24,000 bases of DNA from an uncultured Geobacter sp. (GCA_964389825.1 CAYMFO010000031.1:1-24000); one strand, 5' to 3'. Positions 159 through 23,388 are shown, counted from the first letter of the stretch. The notes: generated from the letters alone by a model not told the origin. Translations and numbers: made by a program.

Positions 159-682
159 CATCCCTCATCTACGGCCTGATCACCGGCGTCCTCTTCGGAT
201 TTCTGCTGCAGAAAGGACGGGTGCTGCGCTACGACATGCAGCTCGGCGCCCTGCGCCTCAGGGACATGACCATCGTCAAATTCATGCTATCCGCCGTGCT
301 CGTCGGCATGGTTGGAGTCTATCTGTTGAACGACCTGGGCCTGGCAAAGCTGTCCATCAAGCCGATGATATTCGGCGGGGTGGTAATCGGAGGCCTCATT
401 TTCGGCATCGGATGGGGGCTCCTGGGTTACTGCCCCGGAACCTCCCTGGGCGCATTGGGCGAAGGCCGATGGGATTCACTGTGGGGCATAGCCGGCATGC
501 TGGGCGGCGCGGCCCTTTATGCCGAGGCATATCCGCTCATGAAGTCCACGGTCCTGACCTGGGGAAATGTCGGCAAGATTACCCTGCCCCAGATCCTGGG
601 CGTGAACCACTGGGTCATCATACCCCTGTTCATCATCGGCGGGCTGCTGCTCTTCCGCTGGTTCGAGAAAAAGGGGTTATAG
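155..682 (+). CDS. YeeE/YedE-family membrane protein (half-size, second member of a split pair)
   Basis: 175-aa ORF, strongly hydrophobic with several predicted helices, and a GWGLLGYCPGTS Cys motif characteristic of YeeE/YedE. The ATGA overlap with the upstream paralogous fragment suggests translational coupling. Confidence 0.8.
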   Translation: MTSLIYGLITGVLFGFLLQKGRVLRYDMQLGALRLRDMTIVKFMLSAVLVGMVGVYLLNDLGLAKLSIKPMIFGGVVIGGLIFGIGWGLLGYCPGTSLGALGEGRWDSLWGIAGMLGGAALYAEAYPLMKSTVLTWGNVGKITLPQILGVNHWVIIPLFIIGGLLLFRWFEKKGL

Positions 683-5110: not shown

Positions 5111-7021
5111 TTATTTCCTCCTGGGCAGACGCTTGTCCCCTACCCTGATGGTCACTTTTTCCTGATCGAAGTATTCCAGCAGCGGCATCATGAACTTGCG
5201 GGAAAGACCTGTTATCTCCCGGAATTCCGGCGGCGTGATCTCTCCCTTTTCCCTCAGATATCCCACGAGGCGCGCCCTGATCTCCGCCAGAGCTTCCGGC
5301 GCGTAGAAGACATCACTCTTGATCTTCACCACCCTGCCGGTCCGCGCCAGAAGGTTGATGTGATCCATCAGTTCCTTTTCCCCCCTGCCGAGACGCTGCC
5401 CCAGCTCCTTCAGGTTGGGGGGCTCCATGCCGGCATCCCGCAGCGCGGCCTCGATCTTTTCCAGCAGCTCCTCTCCCGAAGGTTCGCCTCCCGCCTTCCA
5501 CCCCGGTTTTTTCACCAGGTCCCTGTCCACGATGGCCTTTTCTTCCTTCTCCAGGGACGCAAGGAGCGGACCGAAGAAGCGGAGGTCCGACCTCCTGGGG
5601 ATGCGGGCCTTCAGCTCTTCCTTGCCGATCCCCTCCTTCAGGGGATTTTCCCGCAGATATGCGTCAAGGCCTTCGAGCAGCAGCGTCTTCAGGGCCTCGA
5701 ACGACTCCTTGGCCAGCAGGATGCGCGGCTCGCGCACCATCTGCGACACCAGTCCCTTGGAAAGAAGGGCGGCAAGAGCGGCCTCGGTCCGTTTCGCCGA
5801 AATGCCGCCGCGGATGACGAGCTCATCCATGGTGATGCCGGTGAGCAGGCTTTCCCTGGTCAGGAGGAGTATCCTGTCCGCGTCCTCCCCCCCTTCCAGC
5901 GATTGCAGGAGCTCCAGCGCCTGGGCCGAACGGCGGCGGCGGCGCGGAGGCGCCGGGTCCAGCACCTGTCCGCCACCAACGGTAATCTCCGGGGAATAAC
6001 TGCGCATGATGAACAGGTCTCCGGGCAGGAGCAGCACCGGTTTCTTGAGGCGCAACTGGACCAGGGTGGAATCCCCCGGCTTGAGGGTGTCCCGGTCCAG
6101 CAGGATCACCTGGGCGGACACCTCATAGGTGGCGGAATGAAGGCGGAGGGTGGCCCGGTGCTTCAGTTCACGGGGCGCGGAAGGGAGAAAACCCAGACGG
6201 GCATCCACGGCCCGGGTGGATCGGAACGCCCCGCGGGGCGCCACCACGTCGCCGCGCGCGATATCGGTATATTCCACCCCCTGGAGATTGACCGCCACCC
6301 GCTGCCCGGCTGAACCCAGGTCCGCTTTCCGGCCGTGGGTCTGGACGCTGCGCACCCGCGTCTCAATGCCGGAAGGGAGAAGCTCCACCTCGTCGCCGGT
6401 GCGGATCTCCCCGGAAAGGAGAGTGCCGGTCACCACCGTGCCGAAGCCGGCCACGGTGAACACCCGGTCCACGGGAAGCCGGAACGGACCGCCCGTGGAT
6501 TTTTCCTCCACCTCGACCGCCAGCGCGGCCAGCCCGGCCTTGATATCCTCCAGTCCCTCGCCGGTCCTGGAAGAGACAGGGATAACCGGCGCGCCCTCGA
6601 GAAAGCTGCCCATGAGGTACTCACGCACCTCTTCGGCGACCATGTCCAGCCATTCCGCTTCCACCATGTCGCTCTTGGTAAGGGCCACCAGGCCCTTCTT
6701 CACTCCGAGCAACTGGCATATCTCCAGGTGCTCCCGCGTCTGGGGCATAACCCCCTCATCAGCGGCAATCACCAGCATCACCAGGTCCATGCCGCCAACG
6801 CCGGCAACCATGGTGCGGACGAATTTTTCATGGCCGGGCACGTCCACGATGCCGAAGCGGATATCGCCCGGCAGGTCCATGTGGGCGAATCCCAGTTCGA
6901 TGGTGATGCCCCGCTCCTTTTCTTCCTTGAGGCGATCGGTGTCGATGCCCGTAAGCGCCCTGACGAGGGATGTCTTGCCGTGGTCGATGTGGCCGGCGGT
7001 TCCGAGAATAAGGTGTTTCAT
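5111..7021 (-). CDS. selB: Selenocysteine-specific translation elongation factor
   Basis: 636 aa. G-domain motifs [19 protein letters not shown] and TKSD, followed by a long C-terminal winged-helix extension as in bacterial SelB. SD AAAGGA upstream of the ATG at 7021. Confidence 0.95.
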
Positions 7022-9214: not shown

Positions 9215-9970
9215 TTAAGGCTGCGCATTTCTTCCGCCCCGGCACAGTTTCAGATTTGTGCGGGCGGCATTCAGAATCGGCCAGTAGGTGTCGGCGTCGG
9301 CCGGCGGATACTCCTCGCGGATCTGTTCGTCCGTCTTTGCGGCGTCGGCTTCGAAACCTTTCAGAAGAGAAAGACAGATATCATCACGCTTCATCCTGTG
9401 ATAGGCGAGGGCGAGGTCGTTTTGTATCCAGCCCCTGTCCAGCCAGGTCATGGTCTTTGCACACTCCGTCAGCACAGGTTCCAGGAGGGCAACCGCTTCC
9501 GCATAGGCCTTCCTGTCATAGAGAACCTTGAAATCACGCCGGGATTTCCGTATCGCCCTGGGCAGGCAGGCCGGAGCGGGCTTGAAATATTCACCTTCAA
9601 AATAGGCGCGCATGCCGCAATAATAGTGACACGGTTCGTACGTCTCGGAACTGACCTTGATCGCGGCGCCCTTCGGGTCGAATCTGATGACGCACGCCTC
9701 GCCGGACTCGGTCAGGGTTGCGCTGCCATTCCTTATGACACCTTCCAGGCTGCACATGTGGGCGTTTCCACCCAGGGCGAATATGGTGAAGGAAAGCATG
9801 CCGTCCTTACCCTGCTTGATGGTCAGGTCACCCCACCCCCCTTCCGTTATATAGATTCCAGGATCGATAGCGCCCCCCTGCGCGCAGAGAGATTGTGGCG
9901 CCGCCAGAAAAATCAAGAACATCGACAAAAGCGGCAGTATCCGGCGCCAAAAGTTGAACGGCATTTTCAT
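9215..9970 (-). CDS. Secreted hypothetical protein (signal peptide, Cys-containing beta-rich domain plus C-terminal TPR-like helices), immediately downstream of hgcB
   Basis: ATG at 9970 preceded by GGAAGGAAG. N-terminus MKMPFNFWRRILPLLSMFLIFLAAPQSLCAQG is a typical signal peptide. Same strand as hgcAB, 116-nt gap. Confidence 0.65.
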   Translation of the reverse strand: MKMPFNFWRRILPLLSMFLIFLAAPQSLCAQGGAIDPGIYITEGGWGDLTIKQGKDGMLSFTIFALGGNAHMCSLEGVIRNGSATLTESGEACVIRFDPKGAAIKVSSETYEPCHYYCGMRAYFEGEYFKPAPACLPRAIRKSRRDFKVLYDRKAYAEAVALLEPVLTECAKTMTWLDRGWIQNDLALAYHRMKRDDICLSLLKGFEADAAKTDEQIREEYPPADADTYWPILNAARTNLKLCRGGRNAQP

Positions 9971-10086
9971 ACGGCTTCCTTCCAGGAACATATCTCCTTT
10001 CCCTCCCATTATCTTCAATAGCCGGGGGAATTCAACCGGTTCACTTTTCACGAAGACCGGGCGGCACATTCAGCCGGAACCCGATT

Positions 10087-10377
10087 TCAGGAACAGCAGC
10101 CTCTGTCGGAACGACCGATACCGTGCTTGCGCAGCCAGCGGTGTATCATGCCCGAAGCGCAACCGACCCCCGCATCCACCCGGATTGCGTCGAAGGGACA
10201 ATTTCTCATGCATGCCCCGCACTCCATGCAGGCATCCAGGTCCACGATGCGGGCAAGGCCTTTTTCCATACCGAATACCTGGTGAGGGCAGACCTCCACG
10301 CACCAGCCGCAGCCTTTGCATTTCTCCCTGTCCATCCTCAACGTAGCCACGTTCCGCAAGTACCTGAAACCCTTCAT
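10087..10377 (-). CDS. hgcB: Mercury methylation ferredoxin HgcB (2x[4Fe-4S])
   Basis: 96 aa from the ATG at 10377 (SD AAAGGAGA). Two CX2CX2CX3CP motifs (CKGCGWCVEVCP, CMECGACMRNCP), an additional Cys in GVGCASG, and a C-terminal vicinal Cys pair (RGCCS*). Begins 17 nt after the hgcA stop. Confidence 0.9.
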   Translation of the reverse strand: MKGFRYLRNVATLRMDREKCKGCGWCVEVCPHQVFGMEKGLARIVDLDACMECGACMRNCPFDAIRVDAGVGCASGMIHRWLRKHGIGRSDRGCCS

Positions 10378-10394
10378 AACGTCTCCTTTGCCCG

Positions 10395-11414
10395 TTAACG
10401 GGGCAATCCGGCGAGGACAAGGAGTCCGCCGATAATCAAGGCGAACCCCATTGCCGGCAACGCGAACCTCATCTCCTTTCTCACCCCCGATGGCGAGGTG
10501 AAGGTGGTGCAACCGGTGAAATTGAGGGTGTAGAATGCGCTCACCGCCGGAAGGGCAAGAAAGGCGCCGCCAATCGCAGCGTAATTCATACCCTGGATAC
10601 CGATGGCAAGGAAGTATGCCGCGGTCCAGACAATTCCCACCAGCGCCCCCTTGAAAGAAAAACTCCGGCCGGGAAGAAGGCCGAACAGGAGGGGTCCGAC
10701 GACTATTCCGGACAGCGCGGCGCCGATAAAGGCGACCAGCGCCCGAAGCGCGGCGGCCGGCCCCAGGAAGAAAGCAACCGTCAGAAACAGAAGCCCGCCG
10801 GCAACGCCCAGAGGCTTCAGAGCCGTCACCAGCTCCACCGGCGTCAGCGCCAGCCGCTCCCGGAAAGTAAATGTCAGCTCCCGCATGGCCGGCGTTGTCA
10901 CCATACCGTTGTCCAGGTATTCCGGCAGGTCGTTCGCCCGGATGGCCGCATAACGCACTTCGAAACCGGTCCGCTTTTTCACTTCATGGGCCGCAACGCC
11001 CGGCGCTCCCAGGATCGGTAGTATCAGGGTCGCCCGGCCGGCGAATGACTTCAGATTGGTCGCCTCAATCCTCGCTATCAGCTCTCCGGTACCGAAAGTC
11101 CCCTTTCCCGCCGCACACCAGACGTTGACTCCGAAGGTCTCGAGGACGAGGAGCCAGATGTTCCGTCCCGCCAGGGAGCGGCGCACGATGTCGTAACTCA
11201 TCTTGTAATTGGCGGTCACGACCACCGGATCTCCGGGCGACGGCGCGCCGACGGCGTACAGGCCGGGAGGAACCAGATAACTCATGCGGCCAATCCCCCA
11301 CCGGGCCTTCCATGCGCCGCAACGATCCGAAAAGGCGAGTTCCGGAGATATTCGCGCAACCCTGCCGGATTCCGTAACCAGCCATCCAAGAAAGCCCGGA
11401 ACCGATTCATCCAC
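10395..11414 (-). CDS. hgcA: Mercury methylation corrinoid protein HgcA
   Basis: 339 aa from a GTG start. The N-terminal corrinoid-binding domain carries the diagnostic cap-helix motif NVWCAAGKGTFG (codons at 11103-11126, Cys codon 11115-11117). The C-terminal half is a hydrophobic domain of about 5 helices. Followed by hgcB. Confidence 0.92.
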   Translation of the reverse strand: MDESVPGFLGWLVTESGRVARISPELAFSDRCGAWKARWGIGRMSYLVPPGLYAVGAPSPGDPVVVTANYKMSYDIVRRSLAGRNIWLLVLETFGVNVWCAAGKGTFGTGELIARIEATNLKSFAGRATLILPILGAPGVAAHEVKKRTGFEVRYAAIRANDLPEYLDNGMVTTPAMRELTFTFRERLALTPVELVTALKPLGVAGGLLFLTVAFFLGPAAALRALVAFIGAALSGIVVGPLLFGLLPGRSFSFKGALVGIVWTAAYFLAIGIQGMNYAAIGGAFLALPAVSAFYTLNFTGCTTFTSPSGVRKEMRFALPAMGFALIIGGLLVLAGLPR

Positions 11415-11630: not shown

Positions 11631-11745
11631 TTTGATTGACAGCTTCTGTCCCACCCCGGAAATCACGCGAAGGCGTACTCTTGAAGCATGAAATCACCAT
11701 GAAATACTGTATGAAAATATTGACTTGACGAATGCGGTAAACAGC

Positions 11746-11771
11746 ATTATATGATTATGCAATCATATAAT
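11746..11771. promoter_or_regulatory. Perfect 11-4-11 inverted repeat, candidate ArsR/SmtB operator overlapping the arsR promoter
   Basis: ATTATATGATT (11746-11756), atgc, AATCATATAAT (11761-11771). Contains TATAAT (11766-11771) 17 nt before the arsR ATG. TTGACT/TTGACG -35-like hexamers lie at 11720-11730. Confidence 0.55.
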
Positions 11772-11788
11772 ATCGGAACAGGGGTGAC

Positions 11789-12103
11789 ATGAACGACAGA
11801 GACGTACTACTTGCGGACATCCTGAAGGCCATGGCTCAACCGACCCGTCTGAAGATCATCGAATTCCTGCGGGACGGGGAGCGATGCGTCTGCGAGATAT
11901 TCCCGGCCATTGACGAAGAGCAGTCCAACACATCCCGCCACCTGAACCTTATGATGAACCTCGGGATACTCAGGCGCCGCAAGGAAGGCGTAAAGATCTT
12001 TTACGCCCTGAAGTACCCGGAGGTCCTGGAGATACTGGGCCTGGCATCATCGATCCTGAAGAAGGAGATAAACGGCAAGAGCGACCTGCTCCGGGCTGTG
12101 TAA
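11789..12103 (+). CDS. arsR: ArsR/SmtB-family metalloregulator (divergent from hgcA)
   Basis: 104 aa. KAMAQPTRLKIIEFL, a CVC motif (GERCVCEI), and recognition helix SNTSRHLNLMMNLGILRRRKEG. Confidence 0.9.
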   Translation: MNDRDVLLADILKAMAQPTRLKIIEFLRDGERCVCEIFPAIDEEQSNTSRHLNLMMNLGILRRRKEGVKIFYALKYPEVLEILGLASSILKKEINGKSDLLRAV

Positions 12104-12211
12104 ACGGAAGCCTTCGCGCGATATGCGCCAATGATACTGGGGTCTGCTGTGGAAAAAAAGATATTCTCCCCGCCAGGACTCCATAACAAACGACCGAAAA
12201 GGAGAAAGAGG

Positions 12212-12439
12212 ATGAAGATCGAGATTCTGGGAACCGGATGCGCGAAATGCAAGAAGCTGTATGAAAACACCCTGGAAGCGGTGAAACTGAGCGGCAGGCA
12301 AGCCGAGGTGGGAAAGGTTGAAGACATCAGGAAAATCAGTGAATACGGAGTCATGGCCACCCCCGCCATCGTAGTGGACGGCGAGGTAAAGGCATCGGGC
12401 AAGCTCCTTTCACCTGACGATATCATGAAGCTTCTGTAA
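12212..12439 (+). CDS. Small thioredoxin-fold protein (redox-active disulfide protein 2 / TM0996-MTH895-like)
   Basis: ATG at 12212 after AAAAGGAGAAAGAGG. 75 aa: MKIEILGTGCAKCKKL (CxxC) ...ATPAIVVDGEV, as in the small Trx-like proteins that commonly accompany ArsR plus permease genes. Confidence 0.8.
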   Translation: MKIEILGTGCAKCKKLYENTLEAVKLSGRQAEVGKVEDIRKISEYGVMATPAIVVDGEVKASGKLLSPDDIMKLL

Positions 12440-12454
12440 GGTCGAGCCAGCGCC

Positions 12455-13759
12455 ATGAATGCTTCAATTGTAAAGAAGCCGGCGGGAAGCGCCGGAATTC
12501 TCTTCCGCGCGCTTCTGTTGCTCCTTGTTATTACGGCTCTCCCGGCGCCCCTTCCCGCCCTTGCGGACAGCGCGTCGCGGGCGGACAACCCGGCCTTGTT
12601 CTTCTTCTGGGGGATCGGCTGCCCCCACTGTGAGGATGCCAAGCCGTTTGTTGAATACCTTGGACAAAGCTATCCCGGAATACGGATCCACTCCCTGGAG
12701 GTTGTTAAAAACAAGAATAACCTGAATCTGATGGAAAGAATGGTTCGGGAAAGGGGCGCGGAATCCAGCGGCGTGCCGGTATTCATCATTGGAAAGAGCG
12801 TTTTCTCTGGATTCAATCACACCATGACACGCGGGATCGAAGAAGCCGTTTCGGAAGAGATCGCCCGCAAAAAGCCCGGCGGCGAGCCTTCCGCCCGGCC
12901 TCCGGCACGAAAAGAAGCGGATACCATCTCCCTTCCCTTTATCGGGAAAAGGGACGCCGCCTCTTTTTCCCTCCCGGTCTTTACCGTTGCGGTCGCGGCC
13001 CTGGACAGCTTCAATCCCTGCGCCTTCTTCGTCCTCCTCACCCTTTTGAGCCTGCTCGTCCATGCGCATTCACGCAGGCGAATGCTGCTCATAGGGGGGG
13101 TGTTCGTCTCCGTTTCCGGCATTCTCTACTTTTTCTTCATGGCCGCCTGGATGAACCTCTTTTTCGTTGTCGGGCACCTCTCCGTGGTAACCAGGGTCGC
13201 GGGAATAACGGCCCTCGCCATAGCAATCATCAACATCAAGGACTATTTCCTGTTCAGAAAGGGCATATCCCTTAACATCCCGGAGAAATCAAAACCGAAG
13301 CTGTTCGAACGCATGCGGGGACTCATGCGCGCGGAATCCCTCCCCTCGGCGCTCACCGGCACAATCATCCTGGCAGTCGCGGCAAACAGCTACGAACTGT
13401 TATGCACCGCCGGTTTTCCCATGGTGTATACCCGTTTTCTCACCATGCATTCCCTGTCGACAGCCGGTTACTATGCCTATATTGCCTTCTACAATCTTGT
13501 CTACGTCATCCCCCTGGCCATCATTGTTTCCTTCTTCGTCATTACCATGGGGAGCCGCAAGCTCAGCGAATGGCAGGGACGCGTCATGAAGCTCGTATCC
13601 GGGATGATGATGTGCGGTCTTGCCTTCGTTCTCCTCCTGAAACCGGAACTGCTGCAGGATGTCAAGGCCTCGGTCCTTCTCTTCCTGGGGGTCCTCATCA
13701 CCTCTGCCCTTATCGTCCTGGTGACGCGAAAAAGGCTTCAGTCCCGTCGGGCGCCATAA
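12455..13759 (+). CDS. Fusion protein: signal peptide, periplasmic thioredoxin-like CxxC domain, and a DsbD/CcdA-like polytopic membrane domain
   Basis: 434 aa. Signal-like N-terminus ending PALADS. Trx motif FFFWGIGCPHCEDAKPF, charged linker, then about 6 hydrophobic helices with membrane-embedded Cys motifs (LDSFNPCAFF, YELLCTAGFP). Confidence 0.75.
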   Translation: MNASIVKKPAGSAGILFRALLLLLVITALPAPLPALADSASRADNPALFFFWGIGCPHCEDAKPFVEYLGQSYPGIRIHSLEVVKNKNNLNLMERMVRERGAESSGVPVFIIGKSVFSGFNHTMTRGIEEAVSEEIARKKPGGEPSARPPARKEADTISLPFIGKRDAASFSLPVFTVAVAALDSFNPCAFFVLLTLLSLLVHAHSRRRMLLIGGVFVSVSGILYFFFMAAWMNLFFVVGHLSVVTRVAGITALAIAIINIKDYFLFRKGISLNIPEKSKPKLFERMRGLMRAESLPSALTGTIILAVAANSYELLCTAGFPMVYTRFLTMHSLSTAGYYAYIAFYNLVYVIPLAIIVSFFVITMGSRKLSEWQGRVMKLVSGMMMCGLAFVLLLKPELLQDVKASVLLFLGVLITSALIVLVTRKRLQSRRAP

Positions 13760-13895
13760 ACCGCACTTAAACGCCACAAGCCATTTGCGAGTTACGACGA
13801 AACGGCCTCAGGGGTTCCGGAACGCGCCAGTAAGCAGTTTTTCAGAAACCGCCTGGACGAACGGGCGCACATCAAGCAAAAAGAGAGGAACCGGA

Positions 13896-14276
13896 GTGAA
13901 AAAGATATTATTGGCATCATTGGCTCTCATTCTATTCGTAACCTCGGCCTTCGCCAACGACAGGGGATCCGAGCCGATCATCCGGCAGGCGCTTGCTTCG
14001 GGCAGGCCTACCCTTGTCGATTTCGGCGCCGCCTTCTGCGTCCCCTGCAAGCGGATGAAACCGATACTGGATGCGCTGAAAACGGAATACTCAGGCAGGG
14101 CAAACGTTATCTTCGTGGACATCAAGCAGGAACGTGATATGGCTTCCCGGTACCGCATAATGCTCATGCCGACCCAGGTCTTCTATGATGCCGGGGGAAA
14201 AGAGATGAAAAGACACATGGGGTTCATGGACAAACCGGAAATCATAGCGGAATTCAAGGCCCTGGGCGTAAAATGA
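13896..14276 (+). CDS. Periplasmic thioredoxin-family protein (TlpA/ResA-like) with signal peptide
   Basis: GTG at 13896 after AGAGAGGA. VKKILLASLALILFVTSAFA signal peptide. LVDFGAAFCVPCKRMKP CxxC motif. Its stop overlaps the ccdA start (ATGA). Confidence 0.8.
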   Translation: MKKILLASLALILFVTSAFANDRGSEPIIRQALASGRPTLVDFGAAFCVPCKRMKPILDALKTEYSGRANVIFVDIKQERDMASRYRIMLMPTQVFYDAGGKEMKRHMGFMDKPEIIAEFKALGVK

Positions 14277-14959
14277 GCTTCCTGGACAATATCGAGCACA
14301 TCATCGCGGCATACCCTATCATCGCCTTCGGCGCGGTGTTTCTGGCCGGGATTATTTCATCCGCCTCCCCCTGCGTCCTGGCCACAATCCCCCTGGTGGT
14401 CGGGTACGTGGGCGGGTATGCGGACGGAGACCGGAGAAAGGCCTTTCTCTATTCCGTCGCCTTTATCCTGGGACTTTCCCTTACCTTCACCGCATTCGGC
14501 GCGGCCGCGGGCATGCTCGGCGTCATGTTCGGGATGATCGGCGGCTGGTGGTACGCGGCCCTGGGCGTGGTCGCGGTGGCCATGGGGCTTCAGATGCTGG
14601 GCTTGTATCAGCTTCGCCTTCCCTTTCATGTGGAGGTGAAGCCGAAGCGGAAGGGGATTTTCGGGGCCTTCCTGCTGGGCCTGTTTTTCGGCGTCGTGTC
14701 CTCGCCATGCGCCACGCCGGTACTGGTGGTGATCCTTACCCTGGTGGCCAGCAAGGGCGAGGTAGCCTACGGCACGGCGCTCCTCTTCGTGTACGCCGTC
14801 GGCCACTGCATGCTCATGCTGCTGGCCGGGACCTTTACCGGCTTTGTCGAGGCATTTGTCAAGGCAAAGGGCGTGAGGAACTTTTCCGAATGGTCGAAGC
14901 GGATCGGCGGCGCAATCATATCTCTGGTGGGGGTGTATCTGCTGTATCAGGCGTTCTGA
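14273..14959 (+). CDS. ccdA: CcdA/DsbD-family transmembrane thiol:disulfide electron transporter
   Basis: 228 aa, about 6 TM helices, with conserved Cys motifs SSASPCVLATIPL and VSSPCATPVL. ATGA-coupled to the upstream thioredoxin. Confidence 0.85.
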   Translation: MSFLDNIEHIIAAYPIIAFGAVFLAGIISSASPCVLATIPLVVGYVGGYADGDRRKAFLYSVAFILGLSLTFTAFGAAAGMLGVMFGMIGGWWYAALGVVAVAMGLQMLGLYQLRLPFHVEVKPKRKGIFGAFLLGLFFGVVSSPCATPVLVVILTLVASKGEVAYGTALLFVYAVGHCMLMLLAGTFTGFVEAFVKAKGVRNFSEWSKRIGGAIISLVGVYLLYQAF

Positions 14960-15079
14960 GTCTGCTGTCCGGGAATGGCGTGGGGATTTTCAGAAAGTTA
15001 CATCATGATTGGAATCCGACAAGCATGAACTGAGTTTCCAGGTTGGCGGGGAAGAAAATGGATGTGAAAGGACAACAGT

Positions 15080-16381
15080 ATGAACTGGAAGGATGAGTGG
15101 AAACCACTCACACTGATTATTGCGGTGTTTCTCGCCTGCTACTACCTGCCCGTGGGTACGGGACGCTTCGACAATGCAATTCTGGAAGCATTTCATCTGG
15201 TCAAGTGGTACGCGCAGGAGCATGTGATCCTGTGTCTGGTGCCGGCCTTTTTCATTGCAGGCGCCATTGGCGTGTTTGTCAGCCAGGCATCGGTGATGAA
15301 GTACCTGGGACCCAGGGCCAACAAGGTGCTGGCCTATGGTGTGGCGTCGGTATCCGGCACCATCCTGGCGGTCTGCTCCTGCACCGTGCTGCCGTTGTTT
15401 GCCGGCATCTATTTCCGCGGCGCCGGCTTGGGTCCTGCGTCGGCCTTTCTCTATTCGGGACCGGCGATCAATGTCCTGGCCATCGTTCTCACTGCGCGGG
15501 TGCTCGGTCCGGAACTGGGCATAGCCCGGGCCGTGGGCGCGGTTGTTTTCAGTGTCGTCATCGGCGTGTTGATGCACCTTATCTTTATCAAGGAAGAGCG
15601 GGAAAAAGCGGAAGCCCAGGTGGTCCTGCCCGAGGACGGGGTGAGTCGGCCTCTGTGGCAGAACGCGCTCTACTTCGCTTCCATGGTCGGCATCCTGGTG
15701 TTCGCCAACTGGGGAAAACCGGCAGAGCCGACCGGCGTCTGGGCAGCCCTCTATCAGAACAAGTGGATTCTCACTTCGCTCTCGGCGCTTGCCCTGAGTA
15801 TCATGATGGTGGCGTGGTTCGGCGTGAAGGCCTGGAAGGTGGTTTCGTCGGTGATAGTGGTTGCCGTTCTGGCGTTCATTTTTCCCGGGCAACCGATGGT
15901 CCCCTTCATTGTCGGCGTAATAGCCCTCTCGCTCATCACTACCACCGGCACGGAGGAAACCTCCGAATGGTTTTCTTCCACCTGGGATTTCGCGAAAAAG
16001 ATTCTCCCTCTGCTGCTGTTCGGCGTGCTGATTGCCGGAGCGCTTCTGGGACGGGTCGGGTACGAGGGAATCATCCCCTCGGAATGGGTGGCTCGTGCGG
16101 TGGGCGGCAACTCCCTGTGGGCCAATTTCTTCGCATCGTTCGCCGGGGCTTTCATGTACTTCGCAACCCTGACCGAGGTGCCGATCCTGCAGGGTCTGAT
16201 TGGTTCGGGTATGGGCAAGGGGCCGGCCCTGGCTCTGCTGCTGGCCGGACCGGCCCTGTCGCTCCCCAACATGCTGGTGATCCGCAGCATCATGGGGACC
16301 AGGAAGACGGTGGTGTTCGTATCGCTCGTCATTATCATGGCGACCATAACCGGTATGATATTCGGCGCCTTTTTCGGATAA
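15080..16381 (+). CDS. Polytopic permease of the PF03773 (ArsP/YraQ-like, 'predicted permease') type
   Basis: 433 aa with SD GAAAGGA. Multiple TM helices and a vicinal Cys motif LAVCSCTVLPLF, like the Cys pair in ArsP-type permeases. Substrate unknown. Confidence 0.75.
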   Translation: MNWKDEWKPLTLIIAVFLACYYLPVGTGRFDNAILEAFHLVKWYAQEHVILCLVPAFFIAGAIGVFVSQASVMKYLGPRANKVLAYGVASVSGTILAVCSCTVLPLFAGIYFRGAGLGPASAFLYSGPAINVLAIVLTARVLGPELGIARAVGAVVFSVVIGVLMHLIFIKEEREKAEAQVVLPEDGVSRPLWQNALYFASMVGILVFANWGKPAEPTGVWAALYQNKWILTSLSALALSIMMVAWFGVKAWKVVSSVIVVAVLAFIFPGQPMVPFIVGVIALSLITTTGTEETSEWFSSTWDFAKKILPLLLFGVLIAGALLGRVGYEGIIPSEWVARAVGGNSLWANFFASFAGAFMYFATLTEVPILQGLIGSGMGKGPALALLLAGPALSLPNMLVIRSIMGTRKTVVFVSLVIIMATITGMIFGAFFG

Positions 16382-16866
16382 TGGGAATCGCTACCCTTTC
16401 AATCACAGGTATCGGCGCCATGCTCAAGATCGTAGGGAAAGCCCTGTGCATATTCGTCCTGATACAAATTTTCCTTCTTCATCATGCTGAAGCGGGAGTG
16501 ATTGGCATAACAAACAAAGAATTGTCGGCTTTGCTCGAACAAGGAGTACCTGTCATAGACATCCGCACTGAAAGGGAATGGCGGGAAACCGGCGTTATAC
16601 CGGGCAGCCATCTGCTGACCCTGTTCGACGAAAGGAGGCGGATGCTGGATCCCGGGGTCTGGCTGGAAAAGGTCCGGGCACGGGTTCCAATGGACAGACC
16701 GGTTATCCTTGTCTGCCGCGTCGGCAACCGCACCGTTCCGGCAACGAGATTTCTGGCAACATCAGGATACAAAACTGTGTACAACGTAACCGACGGTTTA
16801 GTGCCATGGATCAAGGCCGGCAAGCCGATAGTGAAGTATCCCGGCTCCTTGTCGGGGTCAATCTGA
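16381..16866 (+). CDS. Rhodanese-domain sulfurtransferase with N-terminal signal/anchor
   Basis: ATG overlaps the permease stop (TAATG); an alternative ATG lies at 16420. Hydrophobic N-terminus, then a rhodanese fold with the active-site loop CRVGNRT. The 589-aa ORF in the track is real only in its last ~161 codons. Confidence 0.75.
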   Translation: MGIATLSITGIGAMLKIVGKALCIFVLIQIFLLHHAEAGVIGITNKELSALLEQGVPVIDIRTEREWRETGVIPGSHLLTLFDERRRMLDPGVWLEKVRARVPMDRPVILVCRVGNRTVPATRFLATSGYKTVYNVTDGLVPWIKAGKPIVKYPGSLSGSI

Positions 16867-17064: not shown

Positions 17065-17121
17065 TTGTGTTATCCGTGTATCCGTATATACTATGAGGTA
17101 GAAGAATTCTGTAAGCGGATA
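17065..17121 (+). promoter_or_regulatory. Candidate promoter/operator of the 17147 cluster with three CGGATA half-sites
   Basis: TTGTGT (17065-17070), 16-nt spacer, TATACT (17087-17092). Tandem TATCCGT repeats (17071-17077, 17079-17085) are the reverse complement of CGGATAcaCGGATA. A further CGGATA lies at 17116-17121. Confidence 0.35.
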
Positions 17122-17146: not shown

Positions 17147-17506
17147 ATGGGAAAAAGAGGATTTGTGCTGTGCGTCTGCCAGGGAACTTGCCCCAGTTTC
17201 ACCAAGATGGATATTTTCGGCGTACTATCCGATGTGCGGCGGGAGAAGCTCTTTGATTACGTCTGCCTCCATCCGCAGTTGTGTGTCGGTGACGGTGACG
17301 AGTTTATCAAGGTGTTGCTTTCCGGCGGGGAGACGGAAAAACTCTATGTGGCGGGATGCGACCCCAGAATGCAGGAAAAAATGTTTCGTGACGCCTTCGA
17401 AGCCGCGGGTTTCGACAAGGAAAAGCACGTGGCGCTGGATATTCGCAACAAGACCACGGAAGAGGCTGTCGCAGCCATCAAGAAAATGGCGGTTGGAAAC
17501 CCGTAA
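17147..17506 (+). CDS. Cys-rich putative Fe-S protein, distantly MvhD/FlpD-like (tentative)
   Basis: Strong SD AAGGAGG. 119 aa with FVLCVCQGTCPSF, YVCLHPQLCVGDG and YVAGCDPRMQ. Cys spacing and overall layout resemble hydrogenase/heterodisulfide-reductase delta-subunit-like domains. Family assignment is uncertain. Confidence 0.6.
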   Translation: MGKRGFVLCVCQGTCPSFTKMDIFGVLSDVRREKLFDYVCLHPQLCVGDGDEFIKVLLSGGETEKLYVAGCDPRMQEKMFRDAFEAAGFDKEKHVALDIRNKTTEEAVAAIKKMAVGNP

Positions 17507-17517
17507 AGCGAGGGCTC

Positions 17518-17799
17518 ATGAAAGAGTGGCGGGGAATACCCAGAGAAGAGATCCCATGGTTTCCAACCATCGAAGGGGAGAAGTGTGTCGGTTGCAGATC
17601 CTGCGTGGAGTTCTGCCCCAATGATGTGCTGGCTTTCGATGAAGTCGCGGGGAAAGCTCGGGTCAAGAATCCGTACAACTGCGTGGTTGAGTGCAAGACC
17701 TGCGCAAAGTTTTGTCCCGCAGATGCGATATCGTTTCCGGGCGAAAAGGAATTCTCCACGTTCATCAGGAAAAAACTCGCGGGAGTGGAAACGGCATGA
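17518..17799 (+). CDS. 4Fe-4S dicluster ferredoxin
   Basis: 93 aa, 11 nt after the previous gene. CVGCRSCVEFCP and C..CKTCAKFCP motifs. Confidence 0.85.
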   Translation: MKEWRGIPREEIPWFPTIEGEKCVGCRSCVEFCPNDVLAFDEVAGKARVKNPYNCVVECKTCAKFCPADAISFPGEKEFSTFIRKKLAGVETA

Positions 17800-17853: not shown

Positions 17854-18096
17854 GTGAAACGGAGAATATGCCGTAATTGCGGTCAGGAAATGAAGAAAGA
17901 GCTTACACCGGAAAAGGTGAGGTTTTTCTGCATGCAGTGCGATGGGTATACCCCGTTCGACGAGCTCGACATGGAACCCTTCTGTCCCGAATGCCACAAA
18001 AAGCTGCAATTCTGCGCCAAATGCAGTTCCGCATTCTTCTGCGACACGTGTAATGCCATTATTTCCAGAAAAAAGATTGTCTGGAAGGAGAAATGA
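17854..18096 (+). CDS. Small zinc-ribbon protein with five CxxC pairs
   Basis: GTG at 17854 preceded by GGGAGG (ORF opens at 17830). CRNC, CMQC, CPEC, CAKC and CDTC motifs in about 80 aa. Confidence 0.6.
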   Translation: MKRRICRNCGQEMKKELTPEKVRFFCMQCDGYTPFDELDMEPFCPECHKKLQFCAKCSSAFFCDTCNAIISRKKIVWKEK

Positions 18097-18149: not shown

Positions 18150-18178
18150 TTGCATTAAGCCGGATATACGGATATATT
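18150..18178 (+). promoter_or_regulatory. Candidate sigma70 promoter of arsR-arsC-acr3 overlapped by a tandem CGGATA repeat
   Basis: TTGCAT (18150-18155), 17-nt spacer, TATATT (18173-18178). CGGATAtaCGGATA lies at 18161-18174, and TATACGGATAT at 18165-18175. The -10 ends 6 nt before the arsR ATG. Confidence 0.4.
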
Positions 18179-18184
18179 CAAGGC

Positions 18185-18523
18185 ATGAAAAACACCGCTC
18201 GCATGTTCAAGGCCCTTTCCGATGAAACCCGCCTTCGCATTCTCTGCCTGCTGCTGGAGGGAGAGTTGTGCGTCTGCGACTTGATGGCGGTGCTCCAGCT
18301 TCCCCAATCCACTGTTTCGCGGCACCTGGCCTACCTGAAGAACTCCGGATGGGTGGATGACCGCAGGTGCGGGGTGTGGATGTACTATTCCATCACGGGC
18401 AACGGCGGCCAATTACGGAATGGGTTGCTCGAAAGCCTGCGCAATGCCGTGCCCGGCCTCGAAGTCGCCGCCTCGGATCGCGGGCGCCTGAACGAGATGG
18501 GACAAAACAGCAGGTGCGCATGA
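18185..18523 (+). CDS. arsR: ArsR-family arsenic-responsive repressor
   Basis: Internal ATG at 18185. FKALSDETRLRILCLLLEGELCVCDLMAVLQLPQSTVSRHLAYLKNSGWV carries the ELCVCDL As(III)-binding motif and the HTH. Confidence 0.9.
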   Translation: MKNTARMFKALSDETRLRILCLLLEGELCVCDLMAVLQLPQSTVSRHLAYLKNSGWVDDRRCGVWMYYSITGNGGQLRNGLLESLRNAVPGLEVAASDRGRLNEMGQNSRCA

Positions 18524-18587
18524 GTATGCGGATAAATGGCTGAAGACGTAAGGGAAACCGATATATTTTTTGCCACATTAACCCGCT

Positions 18588-18598
18588 TATACGGATAT
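18588..18598 (+). promoter_or_regulatory. Second exact copy of the TATACGGATAT motif, 16 nt upstream of the arsC start
   Basis: This 11-mer is identical to 18165-18175. A related CGGATA lies at 18529-18534, and ATCCGTAT at 19056-19063 upstream of acr3. Confidence 0.35.
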
Positions 18599-18613
18599 CC
18601 CGAAGGAGAGATT

Positions 18614-19048
18614 ATGCCTAAAAAGAGAGCTCTTTTTCTCTGCACCGCCAACTCCTGCCGCTCGCAGATGGCGGAAGGGATTGCCGGCCATTTCCTGGGA
18701 GACCTGCTGGAGGCGTTTTCCGCGGGTACCGAGGCATCCTTTGTCAACCCGCGGGCCATCGAGGTGATGCGGGAAATCGGTGTCGATATCTCCGGGCAGC
18801 GCTCCAAGAACTTGGACGAATTTTCGGGCCGGTCCTTCGACTACGTGATTACCCTGTGCGGGGACGCCAATGAAAAATGTCCCCTCTTCTTCGGTGGAGT
18901 GCCAAGGACCCACATGGGTTTCCCGGATCCAGCCGGGGCGAGGGGTACGGAAGAAGAGATCATGGCGGAGTTCAGAAAGGTCAGGGATGACATGAAGGAC
19001 AGACTGACGGATTTCTTCAGGAAACAGTTGAAACAGGTTCCCGTGTAA
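18614..19048 (+). CDS. arsC: Arsenate reductase, LMW-PTP / thioredoxin-coupled type
   Basis: ATG after GAAGGAGAG. P-loop LFLCTANSCRSQMAEG (CX5R) and the downstream Cys pair TLCGDANEKCP, as in pI258-type ArsC. Confidence 0.9.
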   Translation: MPKKRALFLCTANSCRSQMAEGIAGHFLGDLLEAFSAGTEASFVNPRAIEVMREIGVDISGQRSKNLDEFSGRSFDYVITLCGDANEKCPLFFGGVPRTHMGFPDPAGARGTEEEIMAEFRKVRDDMKDRLTDFFRKQLKQVPV

Positions 19049-19081: not shown

Positions 19082-20161
19082 ATGGTACAGGGACTTACCA
19101 AAAGGCTTTCGTTTCTCGACCGTTATCTCACCGTATGGATCTTCGCGGCCATGTTTCTCGGCCTGGCGCTGGGATACTTTGTGCCGGCGTCAAAAACCCT
19201 CATCAACAAGTTTCAGGTGGGAACGACCAATATCCCCATCGCCATCGGCCTGATCCTGATGATGTATCCTCCCCTGGCCAAGGTCAAGTACGAGGAGATG
19301 CCCGAAGTGTTCAAGAACAAGAAGGTGCTCCTCCTTTCCCTGGCTCAGAACTGGCTGGTGGGACCGATCCTCATGTTCGCCCTGGCCCTGATTTTCCTGC
19401 GCGACTACCCCGAGTACATGGTCGGCCTCATCATGATGGGAATGGCGCGCTGCATCGCCATGGTCATCGTCTGGAACGACCTTGCCTGCGGCGACCGTGA
19501 GTATGCCGCCGGCCTGGTTGCGTTCAACTCAATCTTCCAGGTGCTGTTCTTCTCGGTCTACTGCTATGTTTTTGTTACGGTTCTGCCGCCGCTGTTCGGC
19601 ATCAAGGGGGCTGTGGTGAACATCACCATGGGCGAGATCGCCAAGAGCGTCTTCATCTACCTCGGCATACCGTTCCTTGCCGGAATGATAACCCACTTCA
19701 GCCTCACGCGCATCAAGGGCAAGGAATGGTTCGAAAAGTCTTTCGCCCCCGTCATCAGCCCACTTACCCTGATCTTCCTCCTGTTCACCATCTTGGTCAT
19801 GTTCGCCACCCAGGGAGACAAGATCCTGAGCAGGCCCTTTGACGTGGTCGTGATTGCAATCCCGCTTCTCATCTACTTTGTGGTCATGTTCGTTGTATCC
19901 TTCTTCATGAGCAAGAAGCTGGGCACCAACTACGAGAAGAGCGCCACCTTGTCGTTCACGGCGGCCAGCAACAACTTCGAGCTTGCCATTGCCGTTGCCA
20001 TCTCCGTGTTCGGCCTCAACTCCGGCCAGGCATTCGCCTCGGTCATCGGCCCGCTGGTGGAGGTGCCGGTCCTCATCAGCCTGGTCAATCTGGCATTCTA
20101 TTTTCAGAAAAAATATTTTCCCAAGCCCCTTATTATGCCTAAAAGATGCGATGTACCGTAA
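19082..20161 (+). CDS. acr3: ACR3-family arsenite efflux transporter
   Basis: 359 aa, about 10 TM helices. [13 protein letters not shown]-terminus and the conserved GMARCIAMV motif. SD AAGGAGGAGAG. Confidence 0.92.
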
Positions 20162-20197: not shown

Positions 20198-21544
20198 ATG
20201 AACGGCGCCGAACTGAAAAAAATCGAAAACTTTTCCGAATCCGAACAGCTTCCCTCCGTCAGGAGCTATCCGTCGCGCCTCTTTGTGGAGACGACCACCC
20301 GCTGCAACATGAAATGCCACATGTGCGTCAAACAGAGCATGGGCAGCGGACTGGTGGAGGGCGACCTTTCCTTCGAGACATTCGAGGCCATTGAACCGGC
20401 CCTTCCCCGGACTGAGGCGCTGCTCCTCAACGGCATCGGCGAGCCCCTTCTACATAGAAACCTGGAGTCTTTCATATCCAGGGCAAAGGAATTGATGCCC
20501 GCCGGAAGCTGGGTGGGCTTCCAGTCCAATGGACTTCTTCTCGACAAAACCCGCGCGTCATCCCTGGTCAGCGCGGGCCTGGACCGGATATGTCTTTCCC
20601 TTGACGCCATCTGTCCGGAAACATTCAGGAAAATCAGGGATGGGGGCGAGGTGAAAGACCTGGAACAGGCATTCACCGCACTCAAAACCGCCCGGAAATG
20701 GCATCCTGAAAGCAACCTTCAGGTGGGTGTCGAGTTCGTCGTCATGCGCGACAATATCCACCAGCTTCCCGACGTATTAAGGTGGGCCGCTGCGGCGGGT
20801 GTTTCCTTCGCTATTGTCTCTCATCTTCTCCCCTATGGCAGGGAACACGTCTCCCAGATTGCTTATGATTACAATACGCGGGAGGCCGTGGAACTATATG
20901 AGAAATGGCTCGGGAAGGCTAAGAAACGGGGAATCGACATCAGCGGATTCTTCCACACCTATCACTGCAAGTTTCTGAGGACCGCGGAAGAGCAGCGCAT
21001 GGTTGATTTTGTTCTGGAGATGCTGGCTGAAGCAAGGGCGAGAGACATCTTCCTGCACCTGGAGAACATCATGAAGAGAGATGTGGCCATGGCCGGCCAA
21101 CTGGCCGAAACCTTCCAGAAGGCCAGGGAGGTCGCCGTGGAGACGGGACTTGATCTCCGCCTTCCCGAAACCTCTCCCAGAAATGAGAGAAAGTGCGACT
21201 TCATAGACAATGGGGGGATGTTCATCTCCTGGGACGGGGATGTCCATCCCTGCTACTTTCTCTGGCACACATTCCAGTGTCACTTCTCCGGCCGCAAGAA
21301 ATATGTGAACAGGAAGATATTCGGAAATATCAACGACAAAGGTATCCTGGATATATGGAACGATCCCATGTATCGGGAGTTCAGGGAGGAGGTCACAAAG
21401 CACGAGTATCCATTCTGCTCCAACTGCAACCTGCTTCCCTGCGAATACATATATTGCGAGGAGTTCGAGCAGGACTGCTACGCCAACACCGTCCCCTGCG
21501 GTGACTGTTTCTGGTGCATGGGGCTATTTCAGTGCCTGTCGTAA
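20198..21544 (+). CDS. Radical SAM enzyme with C-terminal SPASM/twitch-like auxiliary-cluster domain
   Basis: 448 aa. CNMKCHMC (CX3CX2C) near the N-terminus, GIGEPLL SAM-binding motif. The C-terminus has CX13GX4C (CDFIDNGGMFISWDGDVHPC) and CSNCNLLPCEYIYC plus further Cys residues. Last gene of the same-strand ars cluster. Confidence 0.85.
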   Translation: MNGAELKKIENFSESEQLPSVRSYPSRLFVETTTRCNMKCHMCVKQSMGSGLVEGDLSFETFEAIEPALPRTEALLLNGIGEPLLHRNLESFISRAKELMPAGSWVGFQSNGLLLDKTRASSLVSAGLDRICLSLDAICPETFRKIRDGGEVKDLEQAFTALKTARKWHPESNLQVGVEFVVMRDNIHQLPDVLRWAAAAGVSFAIVSHLLPYGREHVSQIAYDYNTREAVELYEKWLGKAKKRGIDISGFFHTYHCKFLRTAEEQRMVDFVLEMLAEARARDIFLHLENIMKRDVAMAGQLAETFQKAREVAVETGLDLRLPETSPRNERKCDFIDNGGMFISWDGDVHPCYFLWHTFQCHFSGRKKYVNRKIFGNINDKGILDIWNDPMYREFREEVTKHEYPFCSNCNLLPCEYIYCEEFEQDCYANTVPCGDCFWCMGLFQCLS

Positions 21545-21553
21545 AGAGTGTCC

Positions 21554-21597
21554 AAAAAATCCCCCCCCGCCATTGGCGTGAGGGGGGGGTATTTTTT
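21554..21597. terminator. Bidirectional rho-independent terminator
   Basis: AAAAAA (21554-21559), an 8-bp C/G stem (CCCCCCCC 21561-21568 / GGGGGGGG 21582-21589), 13-nt loop, then TATTTTTT (21590-21597). Sits between convergent genes. Confidence 0.85.
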
Positions 21598-21690: not shown

Positions 21691-22029
21691 TTATTCCGCA
21701 AGCTTTCTGACTACGTCTTCAGGGAATCCCATGCTGAATAATTCCTCAGGTCCTATACCGGTTCCGGCGACAGCTACCTTCCAGTTACCTTTAGACTTGA
21801 CAAGGTACGCCTCACCCCCGTCAATATTGTTCGAAAATCTCGCAAAGGCGTAATTGCCGACAATTTTCGGGCAGAACACCTGATCCACCAAGATATAATC
21901 GGTCTTTTTCAGGACTGAGATGATTTTCTTATAGTCCGAAGGATTTGCATTACATTTTGCTTCCCCGGCTAGAGCGCTGCTACAGAAAATCAAAACCAAG
22001 GCGCCGATGAAAACTCCCTTGATTATCAT
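21691..22029 (-). CDS. Small secreted hypothetical protein
   Basis: ATG at 22029 after AGGATAGGGGG. MIIKGVFIGALVLIFCSSALAGE signal peptide, 112 aa. The N-terminal extension in the ORF track runs through repeat copy B and is not credible. Confidence 0.6.
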   Translation of the reverse strand: MIIKGVFIGALVLIFCSSALAGEAKCNANPSDYKKIISVLKKTDYILVDQVFCPKIVGNYAFARFSNNIDGGEAYLVKSKGNWKVAVAGTGIGPEELFSMGFPEDVVRKLAE

Positions 22030-22049
22030 GCCCCCTATCCTTTCCGCGG

Positions 22050-22178
22050 TCACGGGCAAAGACGCAAAGGAATTCCAACAGAAGCGGAACAAGCTGATAT
22101 CACCAGCAAGGTGAATGGTCCTATTTGGCAAGTTCCTGATTTTCCTTCGCGCCTTTGCGTGAGATCGCCTTTTTCAGG
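22050..22178. repeat. Copy B of the ~125-bp terminal-inverted-repeat element
   Basis: Aligns with 2588-2723 in the same orientation. Arms TCACGGGCAAAGACGCAAAGGAA (22050-22072) and TTCCTTCGCGCCTTTGCGTGA (22143-22163). Located between arsM and the downstream small gene. Confidence 0.7.
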
Positions 22179-22229: not shown

Positions 22230-23276
22230 CTAGGAACAGTCAAACGGCCCGTAATGGACAGACTTGTCGCCAGTTACGACAAAATGCCTGCCGAAACGGG
22301 TTTCCTCCACCATCGCCCCCGAGTTACCGCATACCAGCATCGGTTTGTCCTTGATGAACAGGTGATGGTCATCGAGGGGGAAGGCATCGGGGAAACCGGG
22401 CATAGTCCCTTTATAGACGGCAACCTGACCATAGTCTTCGCAGATATCTTCCAGGGGCAGCTTGAAGGTCCTGACGACCCGATAGGTGAAACCGGCCAGA
22501 CCGACCTTTTCCGCGGCGCCAGGTTTGCGCAGGGGCACGGGCTGCCTGCTGATGTTGCGGTAGTCATTGCAGCCAATATCCCGAAGAAGCCTGCGGAAGT
22601 CCTCGCTGTACATGGCGCGCGCGAAACCGGCCCGAAGAACGCACGAATCATCGGCAAGCCGGGGAGGAAGCCGCCGGTCGGCGAGCACCGTTGTGAAACA
22701 CAGCTCCCCGCCCGGTTTCAGGACCCGGAATATCTCGGAAAATATCGCACGCATGTCCGTGGAGATGTTGATAATCTCGTTGGTCACGACAACGTCGATG
22801 GAATTGTCCCCTATGCCGAGGGATCGCAGATCTTCGGGAAACCCCGTCATGAACCGTACATTTGGCTGTTCATAGCCGGATTTTTCCATCTGTCCGGGGA
22901 TGAACTTCTCCGCGACCTTTATCATCTCCTCCCGCATGTCCACGCCAATGACCTTGCCTGTCGGCCCGGCCAGCCGCGCAGCGGCAAAAGCGGTCAGCCC
23001 GTTGCCGCACCCCAGGTCGAGAACCACGCGCCCTTCCAGGTCCGGGGGCAGCGGAGAGCAGCTGCCGTGAGGCGCATCCAGCAACTCGGGAGGCATCTCC
23101 CGCAAGACATCGCCCATGCCCGGATGAAGTTGTTCAGCAACGCAACCGCAGCCGGATCTGATACGTTCCGCGAAAACCTCTTCATAGTAACTTTTCAGCT
23201 CATCGTTCACAGCATAACCCCCTTTATTGTTTTTATAATCATCAAGCAGATCCCGGAAACCGCGTCTCCAGCCCAT
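22230..23276 (-). CDS. arsM: Arsenite S-adenosylmethionine methyltransferase
   Basis: Collinear with ArsM as I recall it: SAM motif VLDLGCGNG, VIGVDM, KPGGEL, and conserved Cys residues (SGCGC, HGSCSPLP, EDICEDYGQ, PMLVCGNS). C-terminus FVVTGDKSVHYGPFDCS. ATG at 23276; TTG at 23285 is an alternative. Confidence 0.88.
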   Translation of the reverse strand: MGWRRGFRDLLDDYKNNKGGYAVNDELKSYYEEVFAERIRSGCGCVAEQLHPGMGDVLREMPPELLDAPHGSCSPLPPDLEGRVVLDLGCGNGLTAFAAARLAGPTGKVIGVDMREEMIKVAEKFIPGQMEKSGYEQPNVRFMTGFPEDLRSLGIGDNSIDVVVTNEIINISTDMRAIFSEIFRVLKPGGELCFTTVLADRRLPPRLADDSCVLRAGFARAMYSEDFRRLLRDIGCNDYRNISRQPVPLRKPGAAEKVGLAGFTYRVVRTFKLPLEDICEDYGQVAVYKGTMPGFPDAFPLDDHHLFIKDKPMLVCGNSGAMVEETRFGRHFVVTGDKSVHYGPFDCS

Positions 23277-23388
23277 CCGCCGCAATTAGATTCACTACAA
23301 AATTTTCCCTCTGATTACAACAAATCTTTCGCAAAGCCCTTCTCCTCTGGAGAAAAAGGCGGCGTGGAACAGTGTGACGGCCCTTCAA

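Follow-up and report, generated by a model that had tools for sequence, protein, structure and literature searches.

A 24,000-nucleotide (nt) stretch of DNA from an uncultured Geobacter sp. (GCA_964389825.1 CAYMFO010000031.1:1-24000; here called the window) carries a four-gene arsenic resistance (ars) cassette, arsR-arsC-acr3-rSAM, whose last gene encodes a 448-amino-acid (aa) radical S-adenosylmethionine (SAM)/SPASM protein. We find that this gene, rSAM, is a conserved part of the ars operon in Geobacter-type anaerobes and a new candidate arsenic gene. As an ars operon component it appears to be unreported and to be distinct from the radical SAM enzymes ArsS and ArsL; judged by its sequence, the protein is an ordinary member of the family TIGR04311. 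Our preferred, though still tentative, interpretation is that rSAM is an arsenite-induced extra copy that performs the cofactor or metalloenzyme maturation reaction of the family as a whole. In aquifers and rice paddies, Geobacteraceae are central to the mobilization of arsenic; descriptions of their ars islands are usually limited to arsR, arsC, acr3, and arsM. With rSAM, a second such gene in relatives, and a putative operator, anaerobic arsenic resistance gains a so far unstudied component.

Linkage of rSAM to the ars operon

The open reading frame (ORF) of rSAM is intact, begins with ATG, and lies 36 nt past the end of acr3 (Table 1), as had been reported in an earlier note on this DNA, which a model made from the sequence alone. 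The intergenic gap is unstructured on folding, and no terminator-like site was found between acr3 and rSAM. The same note had placed a strong bidirectional terminator after rSAM and not after acr3, and folding confirmed this hairpin, which consists of an A-tract, a G/C stem, and a T-tract. The short gap, the position of the terminator, and the conserved ars linkage described below together support the assignment of rSAM to the ars transcription unit.

A tandem operator-like motif (CGGATATACGGATATA) overlaps the putative ars promoter upstream of arsR, whose ATG follows the -10 hexamer by 6 nt. A second copy, with two mismatches, lies upstream of a gene pair encoding a Cys-rich protein and a ferredoxin; these are the 2 matches found, versus 0.12 expected. 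The core of the motif is present in 15 related loci, in most of them shortly before either arsR or the gene for the Cys-rich protein, and the conserved form (CGGATAnnCGGATATA) is located over the arsR promoter in the window and its relatives and directly upstream of rSAM in one relative (L003). We consider the tandem motif to be a probable, putative ArsR operator. The other two ArsR-type genes are preceded by different palindromes, one in the window and one in L088 and L089, between arsR and the gene for a second radical SAM paralog (rSAM2, below).

To place rSAM in a wider context, we compared 160 related loci (L numbers) from genomes and metagenomes, labeled using the ars proteins of the window itself; the close relatives are all metagenome-assembled genomes. 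Loci were called ars-linked if arsR, arsC, acr3, arsA, or arsM lay within 6 kb, and rSAM genes were called orthologs at ≥73% identity. By these definitions, 20 of 24 orthologs were ars-linked, compared to 7 of 116 lower-identity paralogs (Fisher P = 9 × 10−15, uncorrected for shared ancestry). The enrichment near arsenic genes on which the earlier note had staked its proposal is thus borne out. In three of the four unlinked orthologs, the upstream flank is shorter than 300 nt. The fourth, L003, carries at positions 9840 to 10000 an ars promoter with its operator motif and the initial 13 arsR codons (MKTTARMFKALSE), directly ahead of rSAM. This rSAM is intact and has no further ars gene within 10 kb. 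L003 is a deletion derivative that retained rSAM after the loss of arsR, arsC, and acr3.

The position of rSAM within the ars genes varies among relatives. It follows arsC and precedes arsA/arsD-acr3 in L170, L007, L010, and L014, with ars genes on both sides in L170; it follows arsR alone in L007 and the ferredoxin gene in L081. In L173, the same chromosomal site (ccdA, the zinc-ribbon gene, and then an N-ATPase operon) lacks all four genes arsR-arsC-acr3-rSAM, and because of this the four behave as a cassette, with rSAM last, that Geobacteraceae have conserved and that they acquire or lose as a whole. Further ars-linked clades comprise L043/L046/L122/L125, L062 from Deferrisomatales, and the 560-aa paralog.

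Family membership and paralogs of rSAM

All of the cysteine motifs listed in the earlier note were present in the translation of rSAM: the CX3CX2C motif of the radical SAM core (C36-X3-C40-X2-C43; CNMKCHMC), two auxiliary-cluster motifs (C333-X13-G347-X4-C352 and C407-X2-C410-X4-C415-X4-C420), and additional C-terminal cysteines at 427, 434, 437, 440, and 446. Pfam assigned a Radical_SAM domain (PF04055; residues 30 to 196, 48.5 bits) and a SPASM domain (PF13186; residues 333 to 411, 64 bits). Across its full length, the protein matches NCBIfam TIGR04311 (653.3 bits against a curated cutoff of 400; residues 24 to 447 on profile positions 1 to 423 of 423). This family, rSAM_Geo_metal or "radical SAM/SPASM family putative metalloenzyme maturase," is named but uncharacterized, and its name is a guess from gene neighborhoods. 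Every TIGR04311 clade examined, ars-linked or not, scores at least 578 bits, above the cutoff. rSAM shares all family-invariant cysteines of TIGR04311 and the helical insert between the radical SAM core and SPASM. Beyond residues 36, 40, and 43, 12 cysteines are invariant among 77 family sequences (132, 333, 352, 361, 407, 410, 415, 427, 434, 437, 440, and 446), which we infer to be enough for two or three auxiliary clusters. Our literature search found no publication dealing with TIGR04311, with this protein, or with SPASM enzymes encoded by ars operons.

The next NCBIfam matches were to TIGR04317 (tungsten cofactor oxidoreductase maturase; 261 bits), followed by MoaA and NirJ. TIGR04317 is the closest other family and has the same core plus SPASM layout, and distant TIGR04311 members share its neighborhood of aldehyde oxidoreductase (AOR) and ThiS/MoaD-like genes. 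However, rSAM falls under the TIGR04317 cutoff of 380, the 349-position TIGR04317 profile is without the ∼110-residue helical insert, and there is no oxidoreductase gene in the window. An alignment-based AlphaFold model of rSAM (pLDDT of 80) retrieved only generic SPASM/twitch relatives with Foldseek (among them BlsE, SkfB, SuiB, MoaA, DesII, anSME, and PqqE). Query-normalized TM-scores were at most about 0.5 and identities were 12 to 25%, indicating no close structural relative, and a sequence search likewise found no close relative of solved structure. The model predicts the same overall fold as that of the structurally solved SPASM/twitch enzymes but without an N-terminal peptide-recognition domain, the radical SAM core beginning at about residue 25.

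By contig names, most genomes with the ars copy (clade A) also hold a second copy, 62 to 69% identical (clade B), in non-arsenic contexts (Dtd, DUF2400, PabB/C, rSAM, and extracytoplasmic function [ECF] sigma). In a comparison of limited power, 181 positions were conserved and identical between clades A and B, versus 1 that was conserved but different (F251/Y). Clustering fused the two clades, while other clade pairs differed at 5 to 40 conserved positions. The ars-linked clade is without a signature of its own at this level, and nothing in its residues points to action on arsenic compounds. Individual cysteines were also considered as ars-specific signatures and rejected: Cys420, a candidate arsenic-binding residue, is enriched among ars-linked members but is missing in some of them and present in a non-ars subclade, and Cys257 also occurs in 14 non-ars paralogs.

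Outside the ars-linked clades, the commonest conserved partner of TIGR04311 is tungsten aldehyde ferredoxin oxidoreductase. An AOR gene was found within 3 kb of rSAM in 16 of 56 distant family loci and in L117 (63% identity), versus none of the 25 clade A loci, and in several of the distant loci a ThiS/MoaD-like gene stands beside it. Unlike the basis of the family name, the neighbors of clade A are ars genes and not a metalloenzyme. Four ars loci contain genes for XdhC-like cofactor chaperones; as conserved partners, these and the GcvH-like genes described below were rejected, each being found in only three or four loci. In a plasmid search, the only family member found was a 40%-identical protein on pDV1 of Desulfovibrio vulgaris Hildenborough (L177, 130707 to 132206). 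It adjoins a major facilitator superfamily (MFS) transporter gene and lies 2 kb from a chrA-chrB-rhodanese chromate resistance cluster, and its neighbor DVUA0095 is chromate induced. L177 is thus another oxyanion stress setting for TIGR04311, in a model organism.

The ars islands of relatives, but not the window, also hold rSAM2, a 560-aa TIGR04311 paralog with a duplicated helical insert. Its gene is divergent from arsR-(trx3)-arsM in L015/L089 and L088, and in L007 it is located inside an arsR-arsP-trx3-rSAM2-gcvH-like operon.

Candidate functions of the enzyme

In the interpretation that we favor, ArsR would repress the cassette, and arsenite would thus trigger production of rSAM. SAM would be cleaved by a [4Fe-4S] cluster on C36/C40/C43, the 12 further invariant cysteines would carry the auxiliary clusters, and the Cys-rich protein/ferredoxin pair, which has the same operator-like motif upstream, would probably donate electrons. 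The enzyme would then catalyze the same reaction as its non-ars paralogs, of the cofactor or metalloenzyme maturation type, and would not be a dedicated carbon-arsenic (C-As) enzyme. A maturation-type reaction is proposed because the family resembles MoaA and TIGR04317 and adjoins tungsten AORs elsewhere. Mo/W-pterin enzymes are classic targets of inhibition by arsenite, and the extra copy may sustain the function when dithiol, dithiolene, or iron-sulfur targets come under attack by arsenite. If true, this would suggest that arsenite damage to pterin, dithiol, or iron-sulfur systems is subject to active repair in anaerobes. Placement in a well-characterized cofactor or peptide maturase clade was one of the outcomes that the earlier note had listed against its own proposal; the clade does bear a maturase name, but it is uncharacterized.

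Several observations weigh against this interpretation. The products of genes located within ars operons usually have arsenicals as their substrates, and neither an AOR nor another Mo/W enzyme is encoded in the window. The presence of two TIGR04311 paralogs in one ars island is more suggestive of a pathway than of a backup; both rSAM and rSAM2 are found together with ArsP-type permease modules, and a gene for an ArsM-like or CMAS-type methyltransferase lies directly downstream of rSAM in about ten loci. In addition, given the limited power of the conserved-difference comparison, an unchanged paralog could usefully act on an arsenic analog of its normal substrate, by analogy with the glyceraldehyde-3-phosphate dehydrogenase (GAPDH) paralog that works with ArsJ.

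The earlier note had proposed instead that rSAM is an anaerobic organoarsenical enzyme. Extended to the 560-aa paralog, this alternative holds that the enzymes make or break C-As bonds on arsenite or methylated arsenicals, which is plausible but, on balance, rather unlikely. They could, for example, demethylate methylarsenite without O2 to arsenite, which Acr3 would export, or they could build a larger organoarsenical with the neighboring methyltransferase, in the manner of ArsS and ArsL, which work with ArsM. The tight ars operon membership of rSAM argues for such a role, as does the presence of rSAM2 in the same islands, together with arsR-(trx3)-arsM or arsR-arsP-trx3. The methyltransferase genes beside rSAM argue in the same direction, and so do the ArsP-family permeases of these islands, since characterized ArsP exports trivalent organoarsenicals. 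Radical SAM chemistry on C-As bonds has precedents in ArsS and ArsL, and the enzymology of anaerobic demethylation is unsettled, being currently credited to methanogen methyltransferases. However, the proposal found no specific support in our analysis: rSAM has the features of an ordinary TIGR04311 member, lacks an ars-clade signature or strict cysteine marker, and has close paralogs in non-arsenic contexts in the same genomes. Moreover, the family is otherwise tied to tungsten oxidoreductases, the architecture of rSAM is unlike that of ArsL and without the C-terminal domain of ArsS, and about one locus in three has no arsM within 10 kb. The more specific claim that the 448-aa and 560-aa enzymes are both ArsR controlled and form or cleave C-As bonds without O2, in methylarsenite demethylation or in the synthesis of an organoarsenical not yet described with the methyltransferases, is slightly more doubtful. 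If arsenicals are indeed its substrates, rSAM would be the first O2-independent enzyme of its type, and either of these two activities would close a gap in the anaerobic arsenic cycle of paddy soils and aquifers. An arsenical-converting rSAM and a cofactor or metalloenzyme maturase would alike provide the first functional handle on TIGR04311.

Comparison with characterized arsenic enzymes bears on this alternative. Like rSAM, the cyanobacterial arsenosugar enzyme ArsS is a radical SAM enzyme from an arsenic gene cluster. Its gene adjoins that of an arsenic methyltransferase, the counterpart near rSAM being the ArsM-like gene, but ArsS carries a C-terminal Cys-rich domain where rSAM has SPASM. 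The arsinothricin enzyme ArsL of Burkholderia gladioli is likewise a radical SAM enzyme from an ars operon, with arsM as its neighbor (an ArsM-like gene in the case of rSAM). In ArsL, the CX3CX2C motif is at residues 194 to 201, and only three cysteines, for a single cluster, are conserved in a protein encoded by an arsQML cluster; in contrast, the motif of rSAM is at residues 36 to 43 and is accompanied by the 12 further invariant cysteines and SPASM, with no arsQ. No ArsS or ArsL model was among the best 25 NCBIfam matches of rSAM (all E ≤ 3.8 × 10−8). Family scans (NCBIfam and Pfam) and architecture therefore rule out an ArsS or ArsL identity, in agreement with the suspicion voiced in the earlier note. 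ArsI and ArsH are encoded by accessory genes at the end of arsR-arsC-acr3/arsB operons, as rSAM is here. These enzymes of aerobes (a C-As lyase and a methylarsenite oxidase, respectively) are O2 dependent, with folds and chemistry unrelated to those of rSAM, and a functional analogy with them is speculation.

An improbable alternative is that rSAM is a passenger, captured beside ars genes in an ancestor of Geobacteraceae and co-inherited without a role in arsenic metabolism. The clade A loci all come from one bacterial family, which means that the 20 linked loci cannot be counted as independent events, and rSAM is indistinguishable from the non-ars paralogs at conserved sites. Nevertheless, the linkage has outlasted the repeated rearrangement described above (after acr3, arsC, arsR alone, or ferredoxin; before arsA), the separate clades are also ars-linked, and rSAM of L003 remains intact behind an ars promoter despite the deletion.

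Least probable, and only barely credible, is that rSAM is a protein maturase crosslinking or modifying an 80-aa zinc-ribbon protein or a GcvH-like protein, comparable to QhpD with QhpC or to anSME with sulfatases: most characterized SPASM enzymes modify peptides or proteins, and genes for both candidate substrates lie near rSAM, but rSAM has no N-terminal recognition domain, the GcvH-like gene occurs in only four loci, and the zinc-ribbon gene is found without rSAM. The zinc-ribbon gene, just upstream of arsR and outside the arsR promoter, is 2.1 kb upstream of rSAM. It is present in most ars-linked loci and adjoins rSAM in five (L043, L046, L122, L125, and L081); however, in L173 it closes an arsR-arsP-trx3-trx-ccdA operon that has no rSAM within 10 kb, in L084 to L086 it likewise belongs to arsR-arsP-trx-ccdA operons lacking rSAM, and L005 and L003 do not have it. 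We consider its product an ars island component and a possible partner; as an obligate substrate, it was rejected on account of the operons without rSAM. The earlier note had argued against a maturase of ribosomally synthesized and posttranslationally modified peptides (RiPPs) because no small precursor gene flanks rSAM. The immediate flanks are indeed free of a small ORF, and rSAM has no recognition domain, but the statement overlooked the zinc-ribbon gene upstream, which is adjacent in some relatives. A GcvH-like lipoyl-carrier gene begins 8 to 240 nt after rSAM or rSAM2 in L006, L007, L010, and L099. Lipoyl dithiols are classical arsenite targets, and this carrier could therefore be an arsenite sink or a substrate.

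Neighboring genes and other features

Table 1. Coordinates of rSAM, the ars cassette, and other features of the window and of related loci
Feature	Sequence	Position	Strand	Remarks
Sulfur-transport gene	Window	155-682		
DUF5714 gene	Window	1809-2561		
SelB, selenocysteine elongation factor	Window	5111-7021	-	
Mercury methylation pair	Window	10087-11414	-	
hgcB	Window	10087-10377	-	Cys-Cys end
hgcA	Window	10395-11414	-	Cap-helix motif
Palindrome	Window	11740-11775		Precedes ArsR-type gene
ArsR-like gene	Window	11789-12103		Edge of ars island
Second ArsR-headed module	Window	11789-16866	+	
CPHC thioredoxin-fold membrane protein	Window	12455-13759		No Pfam match
Operator-like motif, second copy	Window	17069-17084	-	2 mismatches
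Cys-rich protein, 119 aa	Window	17147-17506	+	Weak similarity to HdrA N terminus; always paired with ferredoxin
2x[4Fe-4S] ferredoxin	Window	17518-17799	+	Candidate electron donor
Double zinc-ribbon protein, 80 aa	Window	17854-18096	+	PF07191; 10 Cys (five CxxC pairs)
Putative ars promoter	Window	18150-18178	+	TTGCAT-17 nt-TATATT
Tandem operator-like motif	Window	18161-18176	+	Putative ArsR operator
arsR repressor	Window	18185-18523	+	Leading gene of cassette
ArsC, thioredoxin-type arsenate reductase (LMW-PTP fold)	Window	18536-19048	+	
acr3 arsenite efflux permease	Window	19082-20161	+	TIGR00832, 455 bits
rSAM, radical SAM/SPASM gene	Window	20198-21544	+	448 aa, ATG start, intact ORF
Bidirectional intrinsic terminator	Window	21552-21597		-28.7 kcal/mol, z = -2.55
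146-aa ORF	Window	21691-22131	-	No family match; N-terminal hydrophobic signal-like segment
ArsM-like SAM methyltransferase	Window	22230-23285	-	Convergent with rSAM, 0.7 kb away
rSAM2	L088	10055-11737		
rSAM2	L089	10001-11683		
rSAM2	L016	7948-9693		
rSAM2	L007	15918-17627		
CMAS-family gene	L093	3219-4316		
CMAS-family gene	L096	11443-12498		
CMAS-family gene	L011	18301-19431		
CMAS-family gene	L170	16111-17229		
GcvH-like gene	L006	11442-11936		
GcvH-like gene	L007	17635-18168		
GcvH-like gene	L010	16370-16996		
GcvH-like gene	L099	1345-1821		

Within the cassette, the N termini of orthologs suggest that the true start of arsC is probably an internal Met near 18614. The ferredoxin module upstream, named in the earlier note as the likely reductant of rSAM, is indeed syntenic with rSAM, and the ferredoxin gene is directly upstream of it in L081.

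Downstream, the earlier note had placed arsM 0.7 kb beyond rSAM. A methyltransferase gene is located there, but its product is only ArsM-like: its best NCBIfam score (122 bits versus a cutoff of 263) falls short, as it does for all ArsM cutoffs. Among orthologous loci, arsM is present within 10 kb in roughly two-thirds. A CMAS-family (cyclopropane synthase-like) SAM methyltransferase is recurrent in ars islands, directly after rSAM or before rSAM2. The 146-aa ORF between the terminator and the ArsM-like gene probably begins at an internal Met and was found only in the closest relatives, L001 and L002.

The second ArsR-headed module of the window encodes Thioredoxin_3, a periplasmic thioredoxin, CcdA, an ArsP-family permease, and a rhodanese, as well as the CPHC thioredoxin-fold membrane protein. 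From its gene content, the module resembles a system for thiol reduction and export. The ArsR-like gene, located at the edge of the island, is divergent from the mercury methylation genes hgcA, which encodes the cap-helix motif GVNVWCAAGKGTF, and hgcB. HgcA-like genes also flank the ars islands of L006, L007, and L010. The window also encodes SelB, and the organism therefore makes selenoproteins. Further upstream are a sulfur-transport gene and a DUF5714 gene.

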